Source: Candidatus Nomurabacteria bacterium (lineage in GTDB: Bacteria; Patescibacteriota; Minisyncoccia; Phycocordibacterales; UBA9973). Taken from it: a stretch of 56,555 nucleotides of DNA. Where the stretch lies: NCBI GenBank assembly GCA_037139835.1, contig JBAXFQ010000004.1, forward strand, positions 1 to 56,555, in the 5' to 3' direction. The translations under genes were made by a program, and so were the position numbers. Shown piece by piece: positions 1 to 26,104 of this stretch (position 1 is the stretch's first letter; every line of letters starts with the position of its first letter). The notes beneath the pieces were generated by a model. It was not told the origin of the DNA, did not search any database, and saw only the letters and a list, made by a program, of their open reading frames with translations.

Positions 1-1524
<1,524 letters not shown>

Positions 1525-1737
1525 TTTGAAATCGATCATCTATCTTAATTTATTAAGTAGACCGATCTTATTGAGTCGATATTGTCTGCCTCAATTGAGC
1601 AGACAATGGACATTGATTTTAAGTCCTAAAAGAAATCTGACAAGGAGGGAAAGACCCCTAGAACGGAACAAAATTAAGAAGATTTTTGTTACTTAAATGG
1701 ATGCGAAAGTTTTGATACAAAATATATAAAACAAATT

Positions 1738-16130: not shown

Positions 16131-16841
16131 ATGAAAAATAAAACATTCAAAAATTTAATAGTCGTTGCATTTTTTGCATTAATAGCCATTACTGCAAATA
16201 CTGCTTCTGCGTACACTACAGGAATACCTTTTGGTTATAATGTAGGCTACGATAACAATATTTATAGTAATTATGCTCCTTTTTATCCTGCACAACAGCA
16301 AACTGTTCAAGCAAATTCTTATCAGTACCAGACAACAACTAACAGTAATTATGTACAACAGCAACAGCAACCTTATACTTATGTACAACCTCAAGCTCAG
16401 TATGTAGCACAGCCTACAACTGTACAGCAAGTTCAGTACGTACCACAACAGCAAAAAGTTCAGTATGTAAATACAAATAATTCACAAGGTGCTTCAGCTG
16501 CAAATGCACTATCTTCAAATACAACTACTAAAAAAGTTGTGACAAGTAACAGTAATACAGGATATACAAGTAATACTGGTAAATATATAAATTATGATAA
16601 CAATAATGCTATGGGTGCGACAGCTTATCAATATAATAGTGCTGGTCAGATATTAACAACTCCAGTGATAGATAGTAACGGTGTAGCAGCATTGTCAGTG
16701 AAAGGTTCTGGTAGTTTTATGCCTAGTTCAGTTTTTCAATGGATAATGTTGATACTTGTTATTTTAGCGATAATAGTAGTTGCTCGAATGATAGCAAGGA
16801 GATCCCAGACTAACGATCCTCACGCAGTCCCCGTACACTAA
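16131..16841 (+). CDS. Secreted low-complexity Q/Y/N/T-rich protein with a C-terminal membrane anchor
   Basis: TTGACA...TATAAT 6 nt before the ATG at 16131, a signal peptide (ending ASA) and a C-terminal TM helix. Confidence 0.8.
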   Translation: MKNKTFKNLIVVAFFALIAITANTASAYTTGIPFGYNVGYDNNIYSNYAPFYPAQQQTVQANSYQYQTTTNSNYVQQQQQPYTYVQPQAQYVAQPTTVQQVQYVPQQQKVQYVNTNNSQGASAANALSSNTTTKKVVTSNSNTGYTSNTGKYINYDNNNAMGATAYQYNSAGQILTTPVIDSNGVAALSVKGSGSFMPSSVFQWIMLILVILAIIVVARMIARRSQTNDPHAVPVH

Positions 16842-16859
16842 TAAGCAGATTGATAGATA

Positions 16860-16900
16860 TTTAAAAACACACCCTCTGAATGTTGGGTGTGTTTTTAAAT
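16860..16900 (+). terminator. Intrinsic terminator
   Basis: TTTAAAAACACACCC...GGGTGTGTTTTTAAA. Confidence 0.75.
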
Positions 16901-16957
16901 TTACTAAAAAATAAAGAAGAGAACACCAGTGACAGTGTTCTCTCTTAATAAGAACGA

Positions 16958-17074
16958 TTACTCGTTAGAAGTCTGACTTGTTTTGAATACAAAAAAGAGT
17001 AACTCAAGTGCTAGATCTGATAATCCTGTTTCTTGCATGACTTGTTCGTGCAATTTTCTTAAATTTTCGTCCAT
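16958..17074 (-). CDS. Candidate 38-aa small protein (MDENLRKLHEQVMQETGLSDLALELLFFVFKTSQTSNE)
   Basis: Hand translation; minus-strand TTGACA near 17155, an A-rich leader and a downstream hairpin at 16915-16946. Confidence 0.5.
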   Translation of the reverse strand: MDENLRKLHEQVMQETGLSDLALELLFFVFKTSQTSNE

Positions 17075-17244
17075 ATATTTTTTGTTCAGTAATTTACTCC
17101 CTGTTCCCGGCTTTATGATTTAATTAAATACTACAACTCTTAGGGATTATGTCAAGTATAATAATATTATTACTAGAGTGTATATTTTGCTTTTTTGTTT
17201 TATTTTTGGTACTATAATTTAGTCTATTAAATAGATAGATTTAT

Positions 17245-17375
17245 TCCGTGGTAGCTTTGCGGTGGAGTGAGAGTTGGGAAGGGATCCAACTTGCAAGACC
17301 TTGAACATTTTGTAATCAAAAAGTGAAAGGTATACAGATCCTGTAAGGATGTCGCCTGTAAGGTGATCGCTCATA
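17245..17375 (+). pseudogene. Degenerate tRNA-Asn 5' copy interrupted by an 81-nt structured insertion
   Basis: 17245-17269 matches the tRNA 5' end at 21/25 positions and 17351-17375 matches the next 25 nt at 19/25; no T arm. Confidence 0.65.
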
Positions 17376-17423
17376 CAGCTAGCTAAATCGAAATATGTTC
17401 TGTTCAATTAAAGTAAAATACAT

Positions 17424-17498
17424 TCCGTGGTAGCTCAGCGGTAGAGCGGTCGCCTGTTAAGCGATTGGTCGTAGGTTCGATCCCTACCCACGGAGCCA
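17424..17498 (+). tRNA. tRNA-Asn (GTT)
   Basis: Acceptor stem TCCGTGG/CCACGGA, D arm, anticodon loop CTGTTAA, GGTTCGATCC T arm and encoded CCA. Confidence 0.97.
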
Positions 17499-17533
17499 AA
17501 ACAAAAACCCCCAGAAATGGGGTGTTTTTATTT

Positions 17534-17660
17534 TGGCTCCGTGAGCAAAGTATCTGCATACTTTGCGTGGTAGGCGATCGAAAAGCTTTTCGTTTTTCGG
17601 TATTAACCGAAACGAAAAGGTATACTGTTCTCGTAGAGAAAGATATCCCTACCCACGGAG
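17534..17660. repeat. Inverted plus direct copies of the tRNA-Asn 3' end around a structured core
   Basis: TGGCTCCGTG..[palindrome]..GTGGTAGGCGATCGAA (inverted copy) and ATCCCTACCCACGGAG (direct copy). Confidence 0.8.
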
Positions 17661-17757
17661 ACTGTGAACATTGTGCACTTTGTGAACTTCCTATAAGGTA
17701 GATATTTTTGTAGTATAATGTTAGAAGGTCTATTTTATTTACTAAATTAAATTTTAT

Positions 17758-18738
17758 ATGAAATGCAATAAAGGTTTCGCTCCACTAATTCTATTAGCTA
17801 TAATTGTAGGTGCTTTAGTCATAGGTGGAGGTGCGTATTATTTAGGAAAGAGTTCAAAAGTTGAAAATAAAGAAGTAAAGGTTGAAGAAAATAATTTACC
17901 AAGTAATCCAGAAATTAATAAGAATCAAAATTTACCAGTTGTTAATAATAATCAACAGAGTAGCATTTCTTCAATCACAGTCCTTTCTCCAAATGGAGGA
18001 GAGACATATAGTACTAGTACGACAATTAAGCAAATTCCAGTAACATGGAAAAGTTCTGGGATAATAAGTAAAAATGTTGCTATTTATATTAAAAACATTT
18101 CTACGGGGAATGAAATAGTTAATTCAATAGTTCCAGATAATGGTTCAACAAATATTTATGGAGTTTCTACTGGAAATTATAAAATAAGAATCTGTAGTAC
18201 TAATCAATCATCTAAAAATTTTGAAGTTGCTTATGACCCAGATTGTGCAACAGCTTCAGACTATTCAGACAATTCATTTACAGTAAATTCTGTAAATAAT
18301 AAAAATAATACTACAAACGGTGTTTATACGAGCACAACAGATCACTTCAGTCTATCTATGCCAACCAACATGACTCTTTCTGAACCTGACCCAACCATCG
18401 CTACATATACTTCAGCTCACTATTACTATGTTCAATATAAGCAAGGAGTAGTACCCTCATTGTCCTATTTTAGAAATATTTCTGTTTCAGATGAAGTATG
18501 CACAGGAGAACCAGTTACTATAGATAATATTCAGTATAAGAGAGCAGATGATATAGGAGGAGGGATGGAATCATCTTCACTTCAATCAAGTTACTGTACA
18601 ATTCATGCGGGTAAAACCTACAGATTATTTTTTGAATGGACATATGCACGCTTCACTGGTTCTACTCCTGATCGAAACGTTGCTACAGTAAAATTTAATA
18701 ATGAATTAGATCAGTTGCAAATCCAGTTTATTGACTAA
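17758..18738 (+). CDS. Surface protein with a prepilin-like N-terminus and an Ig-like SPNGGE domain
   Basis: KGFAPLILLAIIVG N-terminus; ITVLSPNGGE...DYSDNSFTV. Confidence 0.75.
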   Translation: MKCNKGFAPLILLAIIVGALVIGGGAYYLGKSSKVENKEVKVEENNLPSNPEINKNQNLPVVNNNQQSSISSITVLSPNGGETYSTSTTIKQIPVTWKSSGIISKNVAIYIKNISTGNEIVNSIVPDNGSTNIYGVSTGNYKIRICSTNQSSKNFEVAYDPDCATASDYSDNSFTVNSVNNKNNTTNGVYTSTTDHFSLSMPTNMTLSEPDPTIATYTSAHYYYVQYKQGVVPSLSYFRNISVSDEVCTGEPVTIDNIQYKRADDIGGGMESSSLQSSYCTIHAGKTYRLFFEWTYARFTGSTPDRNVATVKFNNELDQLQIQFID

Positions 18739-23464: not shown

Positions 23465-23544
23465 GCCAACGAACCTGCTTTAAAAGGCAGACAACACGGA
23501 TGGGGAAATAATAACTCTTAGAGGTTCGAATCCTCTCGTTGGCA
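23465..23544 (+). ncRNA. tRNA-like RNA (acceptor stem and T arm, no canonical D or anticodon arm)
   Basis: GCCAACG/CGTTGGC plus an A discriminator; AGAGG-TTCGAAT-CCTCT; TGATAAAAT promoter-like box upstream. Confidence 0.55.
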
Positions 23545-23679
23545 CGTAAAGTAAACTGCTTTACTTTACGTAGAGGATTCGAAAGATTATTTGTTACTTT
23601 GTAATCAAAGTCGAATAATACCCGAATCGGTAAGATTCGAATCCTCTCGTTGGCACGTAAAGTAAACTGCTTTACTTTA
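23545..23679. repeat. Palindrome, inverted T arm, structured core and direct repeat of the tRNA-like 3' end
   Basis: TTCGAATCCTCTCGTTGGCACGTAAAGTAAACTGCTTTACTTTA occurs at 23525 and 23636; AGAGGATTCGAA is the inverted copy at 23572. Confidence 0.85.
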
Positions 23680-24970: not shown

Positions 24971-25002
24971 TGTGATATTATCTACATACAACTTAATAGT
25001 TT

Positions 25003-25152
25003 GATATCAGGAGTATGGCGAGAGCACTGGCTCAACGACCCATCAGCAACCCTTAGAGATAAGAAGGTGCTAAATCCAGCCAATAGTTGAAAAACTATAT
25101 GGAAAGATAAGACTAGTCATCTATATCTTTCCTCTTATTAGAGGAATTTTTT
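25003..25152 (+). promoter_or_regulatory. SAM-I (S-box) riboswitch with terminator
   Basis: ATCAGGAG..GAGAGCACTGGCTC..GAC..CAGCAACC..GGTGCTAAATCC..GAAAGAT, followed by TTCCTC/GAGGAA plus a T tract, directly upstream of metK. Confidence 0.92.
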
Positions 25153-25165
25153 AATTTAAAAATGT

Positions 25166-26104
25166 ATGAGTATAAAGACGGCGGAATTTGTGAGTCCTAA
25201 ACATCCAGACAAAATTTGTGATTATATAGCAGATAGTATTCTCGATTCTTTTTTGGAAGGCGATAAAGATAGTCGTTGTGCGATAGAAGTAATGGGAGGA
25301 CATAATTTGATAACAATAAACGGAGAAGTGACTTCAAAAATAAAAATAGATATTGAAAAAATCGTAAAAGATATAGTTGGTAAGGATAATAAAATTATTT
25401 CAAATATAGTAACACAAAGTCTCCAAATAGCTTTTGGTGTAGATAACGGGGGAGCAGGAGATCAAGGAATAATGAAAGGTTATGCAACGAATGAGACAGA
25501 AGAATATTTACCTCTCGAGTATAGTCTTGCTCGTAATCTTTGCATGAAAGTATTTGAAGTTTATCCTTATGATGGTAAGACTCAGGTAACTATAGAAAAC
25601 GGAAAAGTAAAAACAGTTGTATGTAGTTTTCAAAATACAAAAAATGATAAATTGTTAGAACTGGTAAAAAGTATTATTGAAGCAAAAGAGTATCATATTA
25701 ATCCATCTGGTGAATGGAATCAAGGAGGTTTTGATGCTGATACAGGTCTTTCAGGTAGGAAGCTTATAGTAGATAATTATGGACCAGAAGTGACAATAGG
25801 CGGCGGATCATTTTCTGGTAAGGATTATACTAAAGTCGATAGATCTGGGGCTTATATGGCTCGTATGGTAGCTGTAGACTTACTTAAAAAACATAAGGCA
25901 AGGGAAGTTTATACAAAGCTTGCATATGCTATAGGTAAAAGTGAACCAGTCATGGCAGTAGCAGTGATAGATGGGAAAGAAATTGATATAGAAGGATATG
26001 ATTTGTCACCAAGAGGTATATATAAGAAATTAAAACTCGACAATGTAAAGTATAGAGATACTTGTACTTGGGGTCATTTCGGAAGAAGTTTTAATTGGGA
26101 TTAG
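25166..26104 (+). CDS. metK: S-adenosylmethionine synthetase (short form)
   Basis: HPDKICD, GAGDQG, DGKTQVT, DTGLSGRKLIVDNYG, GGGSFSGKDYTKVDRS, GHFG. Confidence 0.97.
   Translation: MSIKTAEFVSPKHPDKICDYIADSILDSFLEGDKDSRCAIEVMGGHNLITINGEVTSKIKIDIEKIVKDIVGKDNKIISNIVTQSLQIAFGVDNGGAGDQGIMKGYATNETEEYLPLEYSLARNLCMKVFEVYPYDGKTQVTIENGKVKTVVCSFQNTKNDKLLELVKSIIEAKEYHINPSGEWNQGGFDADTGLSGRKLIVDNYGPEVTIGGGSFSGKDYTKVDRSGAYMARMVAVDLLKKHKAREVYTKLAYAIGKSEPVMAVAVIDGKEIDIEGYDLSPRGIYKKLKLDNVKYRDTCTWGHFGRSFNWD

Follow-up and report, generated by a model that had tools for sequence, protein, structure and literature searches.

The window analysed here is a stretch of 56,555 nucleotides from Candidatus Nomurabacteria bacterium. 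At 17424–17498 (+ strand) it carries one tRNA-Asn(GTT) gene with an encoded CCA end (ARAGORN; Rfam tRNA, 70.2 bits). The gene is flanked on both sides by small, non-coding, folded modules, here called U (upstream) and D (downstream), and each of them contains a direct and an inverted copy of the adjoining end of tRNA-Asn. An AT-rich spacer with a −10-like box, recognized by eye only, occupies 17394–17423 (+) and is the presumed present promoter of the tRNA. A TATAAT-like box ahead of U (17213–17218, +), likewise seen by eye, is possibly an old tRNA promoter; T-rich and TATAAT-like stretches also precede U in relatives. A consensus scan, which also requires a −35 hexamer, returned no + strand promoter for either U or the tRNA. 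Behind the gene lies an intrinsic terminator (17507–17534) that is called on both strands and forms the centre of a palindrome with 24-nt arms (17489–17543, 92% complementary).

Judged from contigs, misassembly, raised as a concern in the initial annotation, does not account for this layout. Logan contigs from two studies tile 16836–18200 without differences and reproduce the junctions from U to the tRNA 5′ part, from the tRNA 3′ part to D, and from D to the next gene; only 17459–17471, inside the tRNA, is unbridged. Three contig joints (17349 to 17420, 17496 to 17579 and 17496 to 17614) were considered as traces of excision and rejected, the matching sides being short (30–57 nt) or other letters standing between them. 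These joints come from other organisms’ tRNA-Asn loci or from other modules.

Module D comprises 128 nt (17535–17662), starting 36 nt past tRNA-Asn and behind its terminator. It opens with an inverted copy of the tRNA 3′ part that a hairpin interrupts, continues with a core of two hairpins, and closes with 16 nt that repeat the 3′ part exactly in direct orientation, an arrangement that had been read correctly at the outset. The inverted copy (X′) falls into X′L (17535–17543, +), which mirrors the acceptor 3′ strand, the discriminator and CC, and into X′R (17569–17582, +), which mirrors the 3′ strand of the T stem and the T loop; in other copies of the module, X′R follows each tRNA’s own T-loop variant. 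The two parts are separated by hairpin H1 (17544–17568, +), composed of an A, a 9-bp stem with a CTGC loop, and then GT, the palindrome itself lying at 17545–17566 with 9-nt arms that match at 100%. The core is made up of hairpin P1 (17586–17619, +), the conserved motif GGTATAC (17619–17625, +) and hairpin P2 with a GTA loop (17628–17640, +). The direct copy, X2 (17645–17660, +), is identical to 17480–17495, i.e. to tRNA nucleotides ~58–73, and thus starts in the T loop (~nt 58–60). With up to 3 mismatches, this 16-mer is found at only 2 places in the window (0.13 by chance; two or more in 0/100 shuffles). Just past X2, a fragment at 17659–17675 (+) is similar to the beginning of the U core (17296–17312, 82% over 17 nt).

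Module U spans 17244 to ~17393; the tRNA 5′ end is repeated directly at its start, a core follows, and a decayed repeat in inverted orientation comes last. The direct copy (17243–17267, +) runs from 1–2 leader bases to about nucleotide 23 and is 88% identical over 25 nt to 17422–17446; U is kept ahead of tRNA-Asn in 11 genomes, and the first 12 nt of this copy are invariant in all 11 orthologous copies. The core opens with hairpin Ha (17272–17291, +), with 7 pairs, 100% of cells paired in the 11 genomes and 3 pairs changed on both sides (RNAfold agrees), followed by the linker motif GCAAGAC (17293–17299, +), invariant in 11/11 copies. Then come hairpin P1 (17299–17330, +; 12 pairs, 94.7% of cells paired), the motif GGTATAC (17329–17335, +), which is common to the U and D cores, hairpin P2 with GTA in its loop (17338–17350, +; 4 pairs, 97.7% paired, 3 changed on both sides) and hairpin P3 (17351–17367, +; 6 pairs, 89.4% paired, G-U at two positions), which also has GTA in its loop and is anticodon-arm-like. 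The initial annotation had taken the upstream side for a tRNA 5′ copy split at the D/anticodon junction. The 5′ part of this reading stands, but the anticodon-arm part (P3 against 17449–17473: 19/25 positions, 76%, with a 9-nt exact run) is weaker and is at the same time the third core hairpin, so that it is only a possible tRNA copy. No tRNA or pseudo-tRNA match was returned by ARAGORN or Rfam over 17243–17400, even at E 10.

A further component, missed at first reading, is the decayed inverted copy of the tRNA 5′ end (17365–17393, +; best at ~17365–17386), which gives a local alignment score of 9 at −59 to −38 from the tRNA start. It is clearer in relatives G041 and G008, where 10/11 positions match the reverse-complemented 5′ end, and it is decayed in 9 of the 11 genomes.

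By their sequences, the cores of U and D are homologous, as had been claimed: they are 80% identical over 20 nt, the two P1 hairpins correspond (model positions 43–102), and a covariance model built from downstream modules only matches the U core at E 8e-7. BLAST of U against its own genome found only U itself and the tRNA, the family link of U coming solely from the covariance model and from relatives. In Rfam, only tRNA-Asn passes the gathering score, and the matches over U and D are at chance level.

The modules form a family, which bears out what had been proposed from this one locus. The 768-kb genome holds 20 covariance-model matches at E ≤ 1e-5, D among them, and 17 of its 41 tRNA/tmRNA genes have a module behind them, each tailored to its own gene. 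A second member in the window lies directly behind a tRNA-like gene (23538–23668, +; E 2.3e-11). Within the genus, 48 of the 50 good genomes carry modules; copy numbers run from 0 to 37, two good genomes having none, and the same tRNAs are accompanied by modules in many species (Glu, Gln, Lys, tmRNA, Arg, His and Val). The hosts are Paceibacteria/Nomurabacteria-type Patescibacteria; in a sample of 150 other genomes of the phylum searched with strict filters, only 2 weak model matches were seen. The association with tRNA genes is strong for downstream modules: 41 of 52 matches lie no more than 186 nt downstream of a tRNA/tmRNA gene, most of them 20–46 nt away, and all 41 are on its strand. Targeting of tRNA genes, another part of the initial claim, nevertheless does not extend to every copy, since the U-type core (the longer GCAAGAC form with the core pattern, found in 29/50 genus genomes) also occurs in relatives at sites without a tRNA within 1.5 kb. 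There it takes either orientation to the neighbouring ORFs and is antisense to both neighbours in 3 of ~9 loci; by length or first residues, the ORFs beside tRNA-less copies in relatives include no obvious recombinase.

Tailoring to the adjoining gene is evident in the inverted copy: 643 of 740 positions agree with that gene (87%; 37 modules from 27 genomes). X2 is exact over 15 nt in 9/37 modules and matches at 8/15 or worse in 14/37, a count that includes at least one script miss (Asp); it therefore reads as a relic. The copied stretches can pass the ends of the mature tRNA, X2 including trailer bases at Asp, Gln and Arg and U including leader bases, and the palindrome behind tRNA-Asn runs through the terminator; both features point to copying of DNA.

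The distribution is patchy and mosaic. At tRNA-Asn, D is present in genomes G000, G060, G019 and G061 and absent from G008, G023, G017, G011, G081 and G041. G000 and G060, two different species, share a 100-nt block of tRNA, terminator, X′L and H1 at 100% identity; their flanks are at ~50–60%, and the right half of D belongs to a different subtype. The comparison of occupied and empty loci yields patchiness, but not borders: the tRNA-Asn flanks of the relatives compared are too different, and no empty/filled pair with alignable flanks was found among them.

The module stems are kept by compensatory change. In 52 members of the D family, 96% of stem cells are paired and 18 of 20 pairs have changed on both sides, against at most 48% paired in slid controls; H1 reaches 99.3% with all 9 pairs changed on both sides, P2 98.1% with all 5, and P1 89.2%, a value partly lowered by register errors. 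For U, the corresponding figures in 11 genomes are 95.3% and 11 of 29 pairs (slid controls at most 52%). Additionally, U folds on the tRNA strand, because G-T occupies 28 cells of its stems (11 pair positions) and A-C only 1 (1 position); the + strand also folds better by 11 kcal/mol. The pattern is fainter in D, where H1 and P2 together have 9 G-T against 2 A-C cells.

These observations are what the main rival explanation would predict: U and D would be small structured RNA genes made with the tRNA, D by read-through and U from the upstream promoter, the copied tRNA ends serving as processing handles for a core that is itself functional (e.g. in protein binding). In D, X′ and X2 would form a helix resembling an acceptor/T stem that RNase P and 3′ end enzymes could cut. 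We regard this as a serious but rather improbable account. In its favour are the conserved hairpins with their many compensatory changes, the strand preference of U, the G-T excess in D, the shared strand of all 41 tRNA-linked copies, the recurrence of modules at the same tRNAs across species, and the position of several D copies between two terminators.

A precedent in Escherichia coli adds to this side. The tRNA-linked repeats (TLRs; rtT-type units, rrA/rrB/rrF) are short non-coding units directly behind a tRNA or rRNA gene, their 3′ end repeats the last 18–19 nt of the upstream gene, and some lie between two terminators, with three of them expressed by read-through and their function described as largely unknown (PMC8144298). 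Like TLRs, D sits directly downstream of a tRNA on the same strand and ends in an exact 16-nt repeat of the gene end. Unlike TLRs as described there, the modules add a hairpin-split inverted copy, a covarying two-hairpin core found at 17 genes, and a 5′ counterpart, U.

Several findings argue against RNA genes. The X′–X2 helix is predicted to be stable at tRNA-Asn (−48.7 kcal/mol, z −6.2), yet it is not kept in the family, as the decay of X2 indicates (with the Asp miss among the decayed); its 47 G-T against 16 A-C cells could arise by decay alone, given the C-rich 3′ strand of the tRNA. G-U pairs are rare in the D stems (~1.3% of H1 and P2 cells), and D folds equally well on the two strands (−48.7 versus −49.6 kcal/mol). 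Nor would RNA genes be expected to stand antisense to both neighbours, as some tRNA-less copies do, to reach into leader and trailer, to vary from 0 to 37 copies with absence from two good genomes, or to lack any Rfam match.

A different role for transcripts, in line with the antisense or processing control that the initial annotation named as an alternative, is that the inverted copies are cis antisense regulators: in transcripts that read through the terminator or start upstream, they would pair with the tRNA end and either mark such transcripts for cleavage or hinder tRNA folding. X′ is indeed complementary to the tRNA (87%), and the paired form of tRNA 3′ part, terminator and X′ is predicted to be very stable (−66.2 kcal/mol, z −13). 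The mismatches between X′ and the tRNA, however, have no G-U enrichment (10 G-T, 15 A-C and 46 others) and lend such control no support, and the T run of the terminator precedes X′, so that most transcripts would be without it. The decay of the inverted copy of U in 9/11 genomes and the conserved core and X2, which antisense action leaves unexplained, also make this quite unlikely.

Genomic islands and prophages in tRNA and tmRNA genes are inserted by tyrosine integrases, are bounded by attL and attR, use sublocations such as the T loop, and may form serial units with cargo. Williams reportedly distinguished integrase sublocations in 2002, one of them with a direct repeat from the T loop to the gene end, with tmRNA being a further target. 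D could accordingly be a minimal form or a remnant of such an island, with crossover in the T loop, a new tRNA 3′ end supplied by the element and X2 as attR, and U would then be an unrelated rearrangement. The repeat in D does run from the T loop to the gene end, the tmRNA gene is also targeted, and at tRNA-Glu a second module stands 2.3 kb further on, with ORFs in between, as in a serial array bearing cargo. The tRNA-Asn copy, by contrast, has neither integrase nor cargo: the 165 nt contain no ORF, and none fits between 17499 and 17660. The genome’s only Phage_integrase match is a 316-aa tyrosine recombinase on another contig, of a housekeeping-like type that 49 of 50 genomes carry as a single copy, irrespective of their number of modules. 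Moreover, an island neither needs nor accounts for the H1-split inverted copy, a core common to 17 genes, or the mirror-image module U at the 5′ end. We consider an island origin unlikely.

A co-occurring reverse transcriptase (RT), HUH or recombinase gene, as envisaged in the initial annotation, did not emerge: no enzyme class tested tracks module copy number across 50 genomes (Y1-HUH genes, Spearman rho 0.15, p 0.30; tyrosine recombinases, rho 0.04; GIY-YIG genes, rho 0.28, p 0.049, with kin not independent), and the genome has no RT, IS110 or TnpB. Even where 32 and 37 copies are present, the genome has a single recombinase and a single weak Y1 match. The genome under study also encodes one large serine recombinase (452-aa frame).

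This genome has a Y1 gene (C9:26319–26990; Pfam Y1_Tnp, 47.5 bits; NCBIfam REP-associated tyrosine transposase, 47.9 bits, below its cut-off of 80). REP/REPIN–RAYT systems and IS200/IS605-type PATEs resemble the modules in being small, abundant, hairpin-based, strand-specific and devoid of terminal inverted repeats, and IS608 uses short guides 5′ of a hairpin. The modules might be non-autonomous, REPIN- or PATE-like partners of the Y1-HUH transposases of the genus, X′L (just 5′ of H1) being an extended guide for the flank. As in REPIN–RAYT systems, the RAYT-like gene has flanking palindromes of its own, three perfect ones of 42 nt, which have a 9-mer and a GTGTAC-type motif in common with the U core. 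At 5 of 10 Y1 loci, the ORF lies between hairpins with an identical 11-mer at the apex, and this 11-mer (225 occurrences in the 50 genomes, where the reversed control occurs 5 times) tracks the Y1 count (rho 0.63). The modules, on the other hand, do not follow Y1. Their number correlates with neither the Y1 genes nor the 11-mer (rho 0.07), and that of the U-type core only weakly (rho 0.21); the latter core occurs in 25 of the 38 genomes that have Y1 and in 4 of the 12 that lack it (Fisher p 0.09). In those 12, the median number of modules is 7.5. No model match flanks any of the 10 Y1 genes (best E 0.068), the D copy at tRNA-Asn is without the 9-mer, and the Y1 flanks are a different, simpler hairpin. 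To our knowledge, REPINs do not copy neighbouring gene ends. Partnership with Y1 is therefore very improbable.

The explanation we prefer, at about even chances, is that U and D are gene-less mobile DNA modules inserted where tRNA and tmRNA genes begin or end. Patchy presence, mosaic copies, the 100% identical block and decayed X2 copies favour the non-autonomous mobile element proposed in the initial annotation. Tailoring to each gene, position on the tRNA strand, copying beyond the mature tRNA, the second module at tRNA-Glu, the two orientations at non-tRNA sites, the compensatory changes and the stable fold of tRNA 3′ part, terminator and X′ also count for it. Layout, family, tailoring, folding on the tRNA strand and patchy, mosaic distribution are observed; mobility, a single-stranded intermediate and the enzyme are inferred. 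Let T be the copied gene end, for D nucleotides ~58–73 with a few trailer bases and for U a few leader bases with nucleotides 1–23. A module would then consist of an expression signal (the terminator in D, the promoter-like spacer in U), an inverted copy T′, and the hairpin core (P1, GGTRTAC, P2). On a single strand, T′ would pair with a T copy into a duplex resembling the gene end, one strand would be swapped with the identical chromosomal sequence, and replication would fix the outcome, i.e. T–signal–T′–core–T for D and T–core–T′–signal–T for U. The working tRNA would keep the T copy beside the module’s own terminator or promoter, and the other copy would become a relic. Candidate movers are the Xer-like tyrosine recombinase (frame at C12:20329–20820) and, since a copy of the tRNA end stands on either side of the module, ordinary homologous recombination with DNA that the cell has taken up. 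The gain of arms for a new tRNA is a weak point of the model, for which template switching that corrects the close palindrome is one suggestion. We offer insertion through pairing of T′ with T on a single strand tentatively, as a possible rather than a probable route.

Known folded sites provide a parallel. Integron attC and CTX-phage attP(+) are single-stranded sites defined by structure, with stems that undergo compensatory change. The layout T–cargo–T′–loop–T is likewise what integration of a folded hairpin would produce, and the single strand of a module can refold, by predicted energies, into a duplex resembling its target. Unlike attC and attP(+), the module stems copy 16–25 nt of the target gene and differ by locus, and no IntI was found. 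A search of full texts outside subscription journals and supplements returned no description of such modules.

Apart from copy numbers that follow no enzyme tested and the failure to find an alignable empty/filled pair, three observations count against mobility. The same tRNAs hold modules across species, with structure well kept in very small genomes, which also fits a host function; the G-T to A-C ratio of U (28 to 1) is an RNA-like pattern; and the distal direct copy of U is invariant while its inverted copy decays, the reverse of D. The fullest form of the proposal is that these are gene-less mobile DNAs that carry a folded copy of the target gene end as an address, replace its terminator or promoter, act at either end of a tRNA gene, are re-addressed by copying new gene ends, and are perhaps moved by host recombination on DNA from relatives. 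Taken as a whole, this is conceivable but on balance doubtful.

If the modules are mobile, they illustrate how DNA lacking its own transposase can spread through the smallest bacterial genomes. The ends of tRNA genes, the most conserved sequences available, would serve both as address and as homology, and tRNA promoters and terminators would be rewired along the way. If they are RNAs, they represent an abundant unknown RNA class in uncultivated Paceibacteria/Nomurabacteria-type Patescibacteria and would give new access to the TLRs of E. coli, which have lacked an explanation since 1978. In both cases, tailored direct and inverted copies of gene ends are a clear annotation signature for Patescibacteria genomes and for the sites at which gene cassettes are gained.

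The sole tRNA gene of the window (ARAGORN and Rfam), tRNA-Asn(GTT) at 17424–17498 on the plus strand, is followed by a terminator called on both strands (17507–17534) and then by a 128-nt module, D (17535–17662). D begins with an inverted copy of the acceptor 3' strand of the tRNA together with its discriminator and CC (17535–17543). An A, a perfectly paired 9-bp hairpin closed by a CTGC loop (H1), and GT interrupt this copy (between 17543 and 17569), which resumes with the T stem 3' strand and the T loop, again as reverse complement (17569–17582). Its core, after 17582, comprises the long P1 hairpin, a GGTATAC motif, and the 5-bp P2 hairpin, whose loop is GTA, and an exact 16-nt direct copy of tRNA nt ~58–73 ends the module (17645–17660). 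A 16-mer of the tRNA 3' end, at ≤3 mismatches, had two sites only (chance expectation 0.13; at least two sites in 0/100 shuffles). Repeat and hairpin comparison upheld the layout of flanking elements in the initial annotation, which had missed only an inverted 5' copy. Misassembly, also raised there, does not account for it as far as contigs can tell: Logan contigs of two studies tile 16836–18200 without differences, span the junctions of the tRNA with the upstream module U and with D as well as that of D with the following gene, and leave unbridged only 13 nt inside tRNA-Asn, a sequence common to many organisms. Directly after the distal direct copy, 17659–17700 contains two TGTGAAC repeats, matches the start of the U core at 82% over 17 nt, and may be what is left of another module. 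Elsewhere, a 16S rRNA gene stands at the contig start (window 1–1526) with no 23S or 5S gene after it in the 56.5-kb window, so that the rRNA genes appear unlinked, and a SAM riboswitch (25001–25113; Rfam 54.4 bits) precedes an ORF at 25166–26104.

BLAST of D against the 768-kb genome returned six additional copies. A covariance model built from 12 copies has 20 matches in the genome (E ≤ 1e-5), and 17 of the 41 genes called by ARAGORN (40 tRNA, one tmRNA) are followed by one (Glu, Gln twice, Val, His, Lys twice, Asn, Gly twice, Arg twice, Leu twice, Asp, Tyr, and tmRNA), bearing out the expectation of similar cores at other tRNAs. The other matches are a second unit 2.3 kb past tRNA-Glu, a module that follows a tRNA-like gene, and the U core (E 8e-7); variant forms were seen by eye behind Leu(taa), Tyr, Ile(tat), and Thr(ggt). 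Each module, without exception, carries inverted and direct copies of the gene it adjoins, including that gene's T-loop variant, and the inverted copy matches its own tRNA at 643/740 positions (37 modules, 27 genomes). Modules are found in 48 of 50 genus genomes (≥95% complete; 0–37 copies per genome, median 10.5), and a phylum-wide sample of 150 other genomes gave 2 weak matches under stricter filters. The exact core pattern occurs in at least 120 stretches of public MAGs labelled Nomurabacteria, Paceibacterota, Parcubacteria, and similar. A Rfam search gave no family resembling the modules, a full-text literature search gave no description of them, and a preprint of 2026 about tRNA mimics in bacteria, in its abstract and outline, deals with other RNAs.

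The two tRNA-Glu modules (C22:4042–6815) lie 2.3 kb apart with ORFs between, and the distal one has a decayed copy of the entire T arm and 3' end in front. The modules of tRNA-Arg(cct) (C2:34921–35100) and tRNA-Lys(ttt) (C8:28880–29076) end in two successive tRNA 3' end copies. The tRNA-like gene (window 23465–23544, plus strand) combines an acceptor stem and a T arm with a UAA-bearing anticodon-like arm and a variable region that is long, lacks a D arm, scores 24.3 bits as Rfam tRNA (gathering score 29), and is not called by ARAGORN; in the module directly behind it (23538–23668), a 41-nt direct repeat (gene end plus H1) brackets the core.

U (17244–~17393) opens with a repeat of the first 23 nt of tRNA-Asn and one or two leader bases (17243–17267; 88% over 25 nt), followed by a hairpin, the linker GCAAGAC, P1, GGTATAC, two hairpins with GTA in their loops, and an inverted copy of the 5' end of tRNA-Asn in decayed form. 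The supposed anticodon-arm copy (19/25 nt) may simply be the third core hairpin. U is kept 177–185 nt ahead of tRNA-Asn in 11 genomes, across which 95.3% of stem cells are paired and 11/29 pairs have changed on both sides (slid controls ≤52%). G-T occurs in 28 cells versus A-C in 1, and the plus strand folds better by 11 kcal/mol; the folded form of U is therefore a single strand with the sense of the tRNA. Decayed 5' copies lie upstream of other tRNAs of the genome too (alignment score ≥12 in 5/41; background mostly 5–8). Such copies, of tRNA nt 1 to 16–33, stand 50–220 nt upstream of tRNA-Asp, Lys-ttt, Ile-gat, Lys-ctt, Val-gac, and Ile-tat (C1, C8, C10, C15, and C21), some with a short inverted copy and an intervening TATAAT-like box, and all without a core.

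For D and its family, among 52 matches in an alignment fitted to the covariance model, 96% of cells are paired and 18/20 pairs have changed on both sides (slid controls ≤48%). Unlike those of U, their stems are nearly all Watson–Crick (H1, 5 G-T and 2 A-C in 450 cells; P2, 4 and 0), and both strands of D fold equally well. The main rival to an origin by insertion is that the modules are read-through small RNAs like the tRNA-linked repeats of E. coli, whose 3' 18–19 nt are the 3' end of the upstream gene (PMC8144298); D likewise ends with a tRNA 3' copy. The G-U pattern of U speaks for such an RNA, but the scarcity of G-U pairs in D and the decay of the distal direct copy speak against it, and we regard it as possible rather than probable. 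That the inverted copies exert antisense control in cis ranks lower and seems quite unlikely.

We give even chances to the modules being inserted mobile DNA. At tRNA-Asn of congeners, D is present in some and missing in others, and the presence of U varies independently. Between this genome and the congener G060, a 100-nt block made up of the tRNA, terminator, first part of the inverted copy, and H1 shows 100% identity, U is 73–94% identical, the right halves of D belong to different subtypes, and the flanks reach only ~50–60%. Across the 37 modules, the inverted copy is kept while the distal direct copy decays (exact in 9, 8/15 or worse in 14, by a rough script that missed at least Asp). Copied stretches extend past the mature tRNA ends into leader or trailer bases. 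In relatives, U-type cores also occur at sites without a tRNA within 1.5 kb, in either orientation relative to adjoining ORFs; the inverted repeats that close them there consist of local sequence.

No enzyme accompanies the module family. Besides a single tyrosine recombinase (such a gene is present in 49/50 genomes), the genome contains three GIY-YIG genes, one Y1-HUH gene, and one large serine recombinase; no RT, IS110, or TnpB was found in it. Over 50 genomes, the number of modules shows a weak correlation with that of GIY-YIG genes (rho 0.28) and none with integrases (rho 0.04) or Y1 genes (rho 0.15), and co-occurrence tests with four enzyme families were negative. A classical integrase remnant, ranked below the small RNA, is unlikely. 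The Y1-HUH gene region (C9:25780–27030; RAYT/IS200-like, 223-aa frame, H-F-H motif) has three perfect 42-nt palindromes flanking the gene, which have a 9-mer and a GTGTAC-type motif in common with the U core; Y1 elements may share a motif with U. At 5/10 Y1 loci, hairpins with the same apex 11-mer bracket the ORF, and this 11-mer (225 occurrences in 50 genomes versus 5 for the reversed control) tracks Y1 count (rho 0.63) and not module count (rho 0.07). Because of this, and because the covariance model placed no module beside any of the 10 Y1 genes, we treat these elements as what looks like a separate hairpin-transposase family; that the modules are Y1-dependent REPIN-like elements, also ranked below the small RNA, is very improbable.

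One rule covers both layouts: with T the copied gene end and T' its inverted copy, D is T–terminator–T'–core–T and U is T–core–T'–promoter-like spacer–T. Strand orientation of the core is the same in both, and the copy adjoining the short spacer is always the one used by the working tRNA. A single-stranded circle in which T' folds on T could exchange one strand with identical chromosomal sequence and leave the observed footprint. CTX phage integrates at dif by such folded single-strand exchange, and integron cassettes do so through attC. We advance this route for the modules only tentatively. Alternatively, plain homologous recombination of taken-up DNA into a relative's empty gene could carry a module, since two tRNA-end copies bracket it. 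Against mobility stands that it offers no explanation for the way in which arms would be rebuilt at a new tRNA; moreover, modules recur at the same tRNAs across species and have a well-preserved structure, as would fit a host function.
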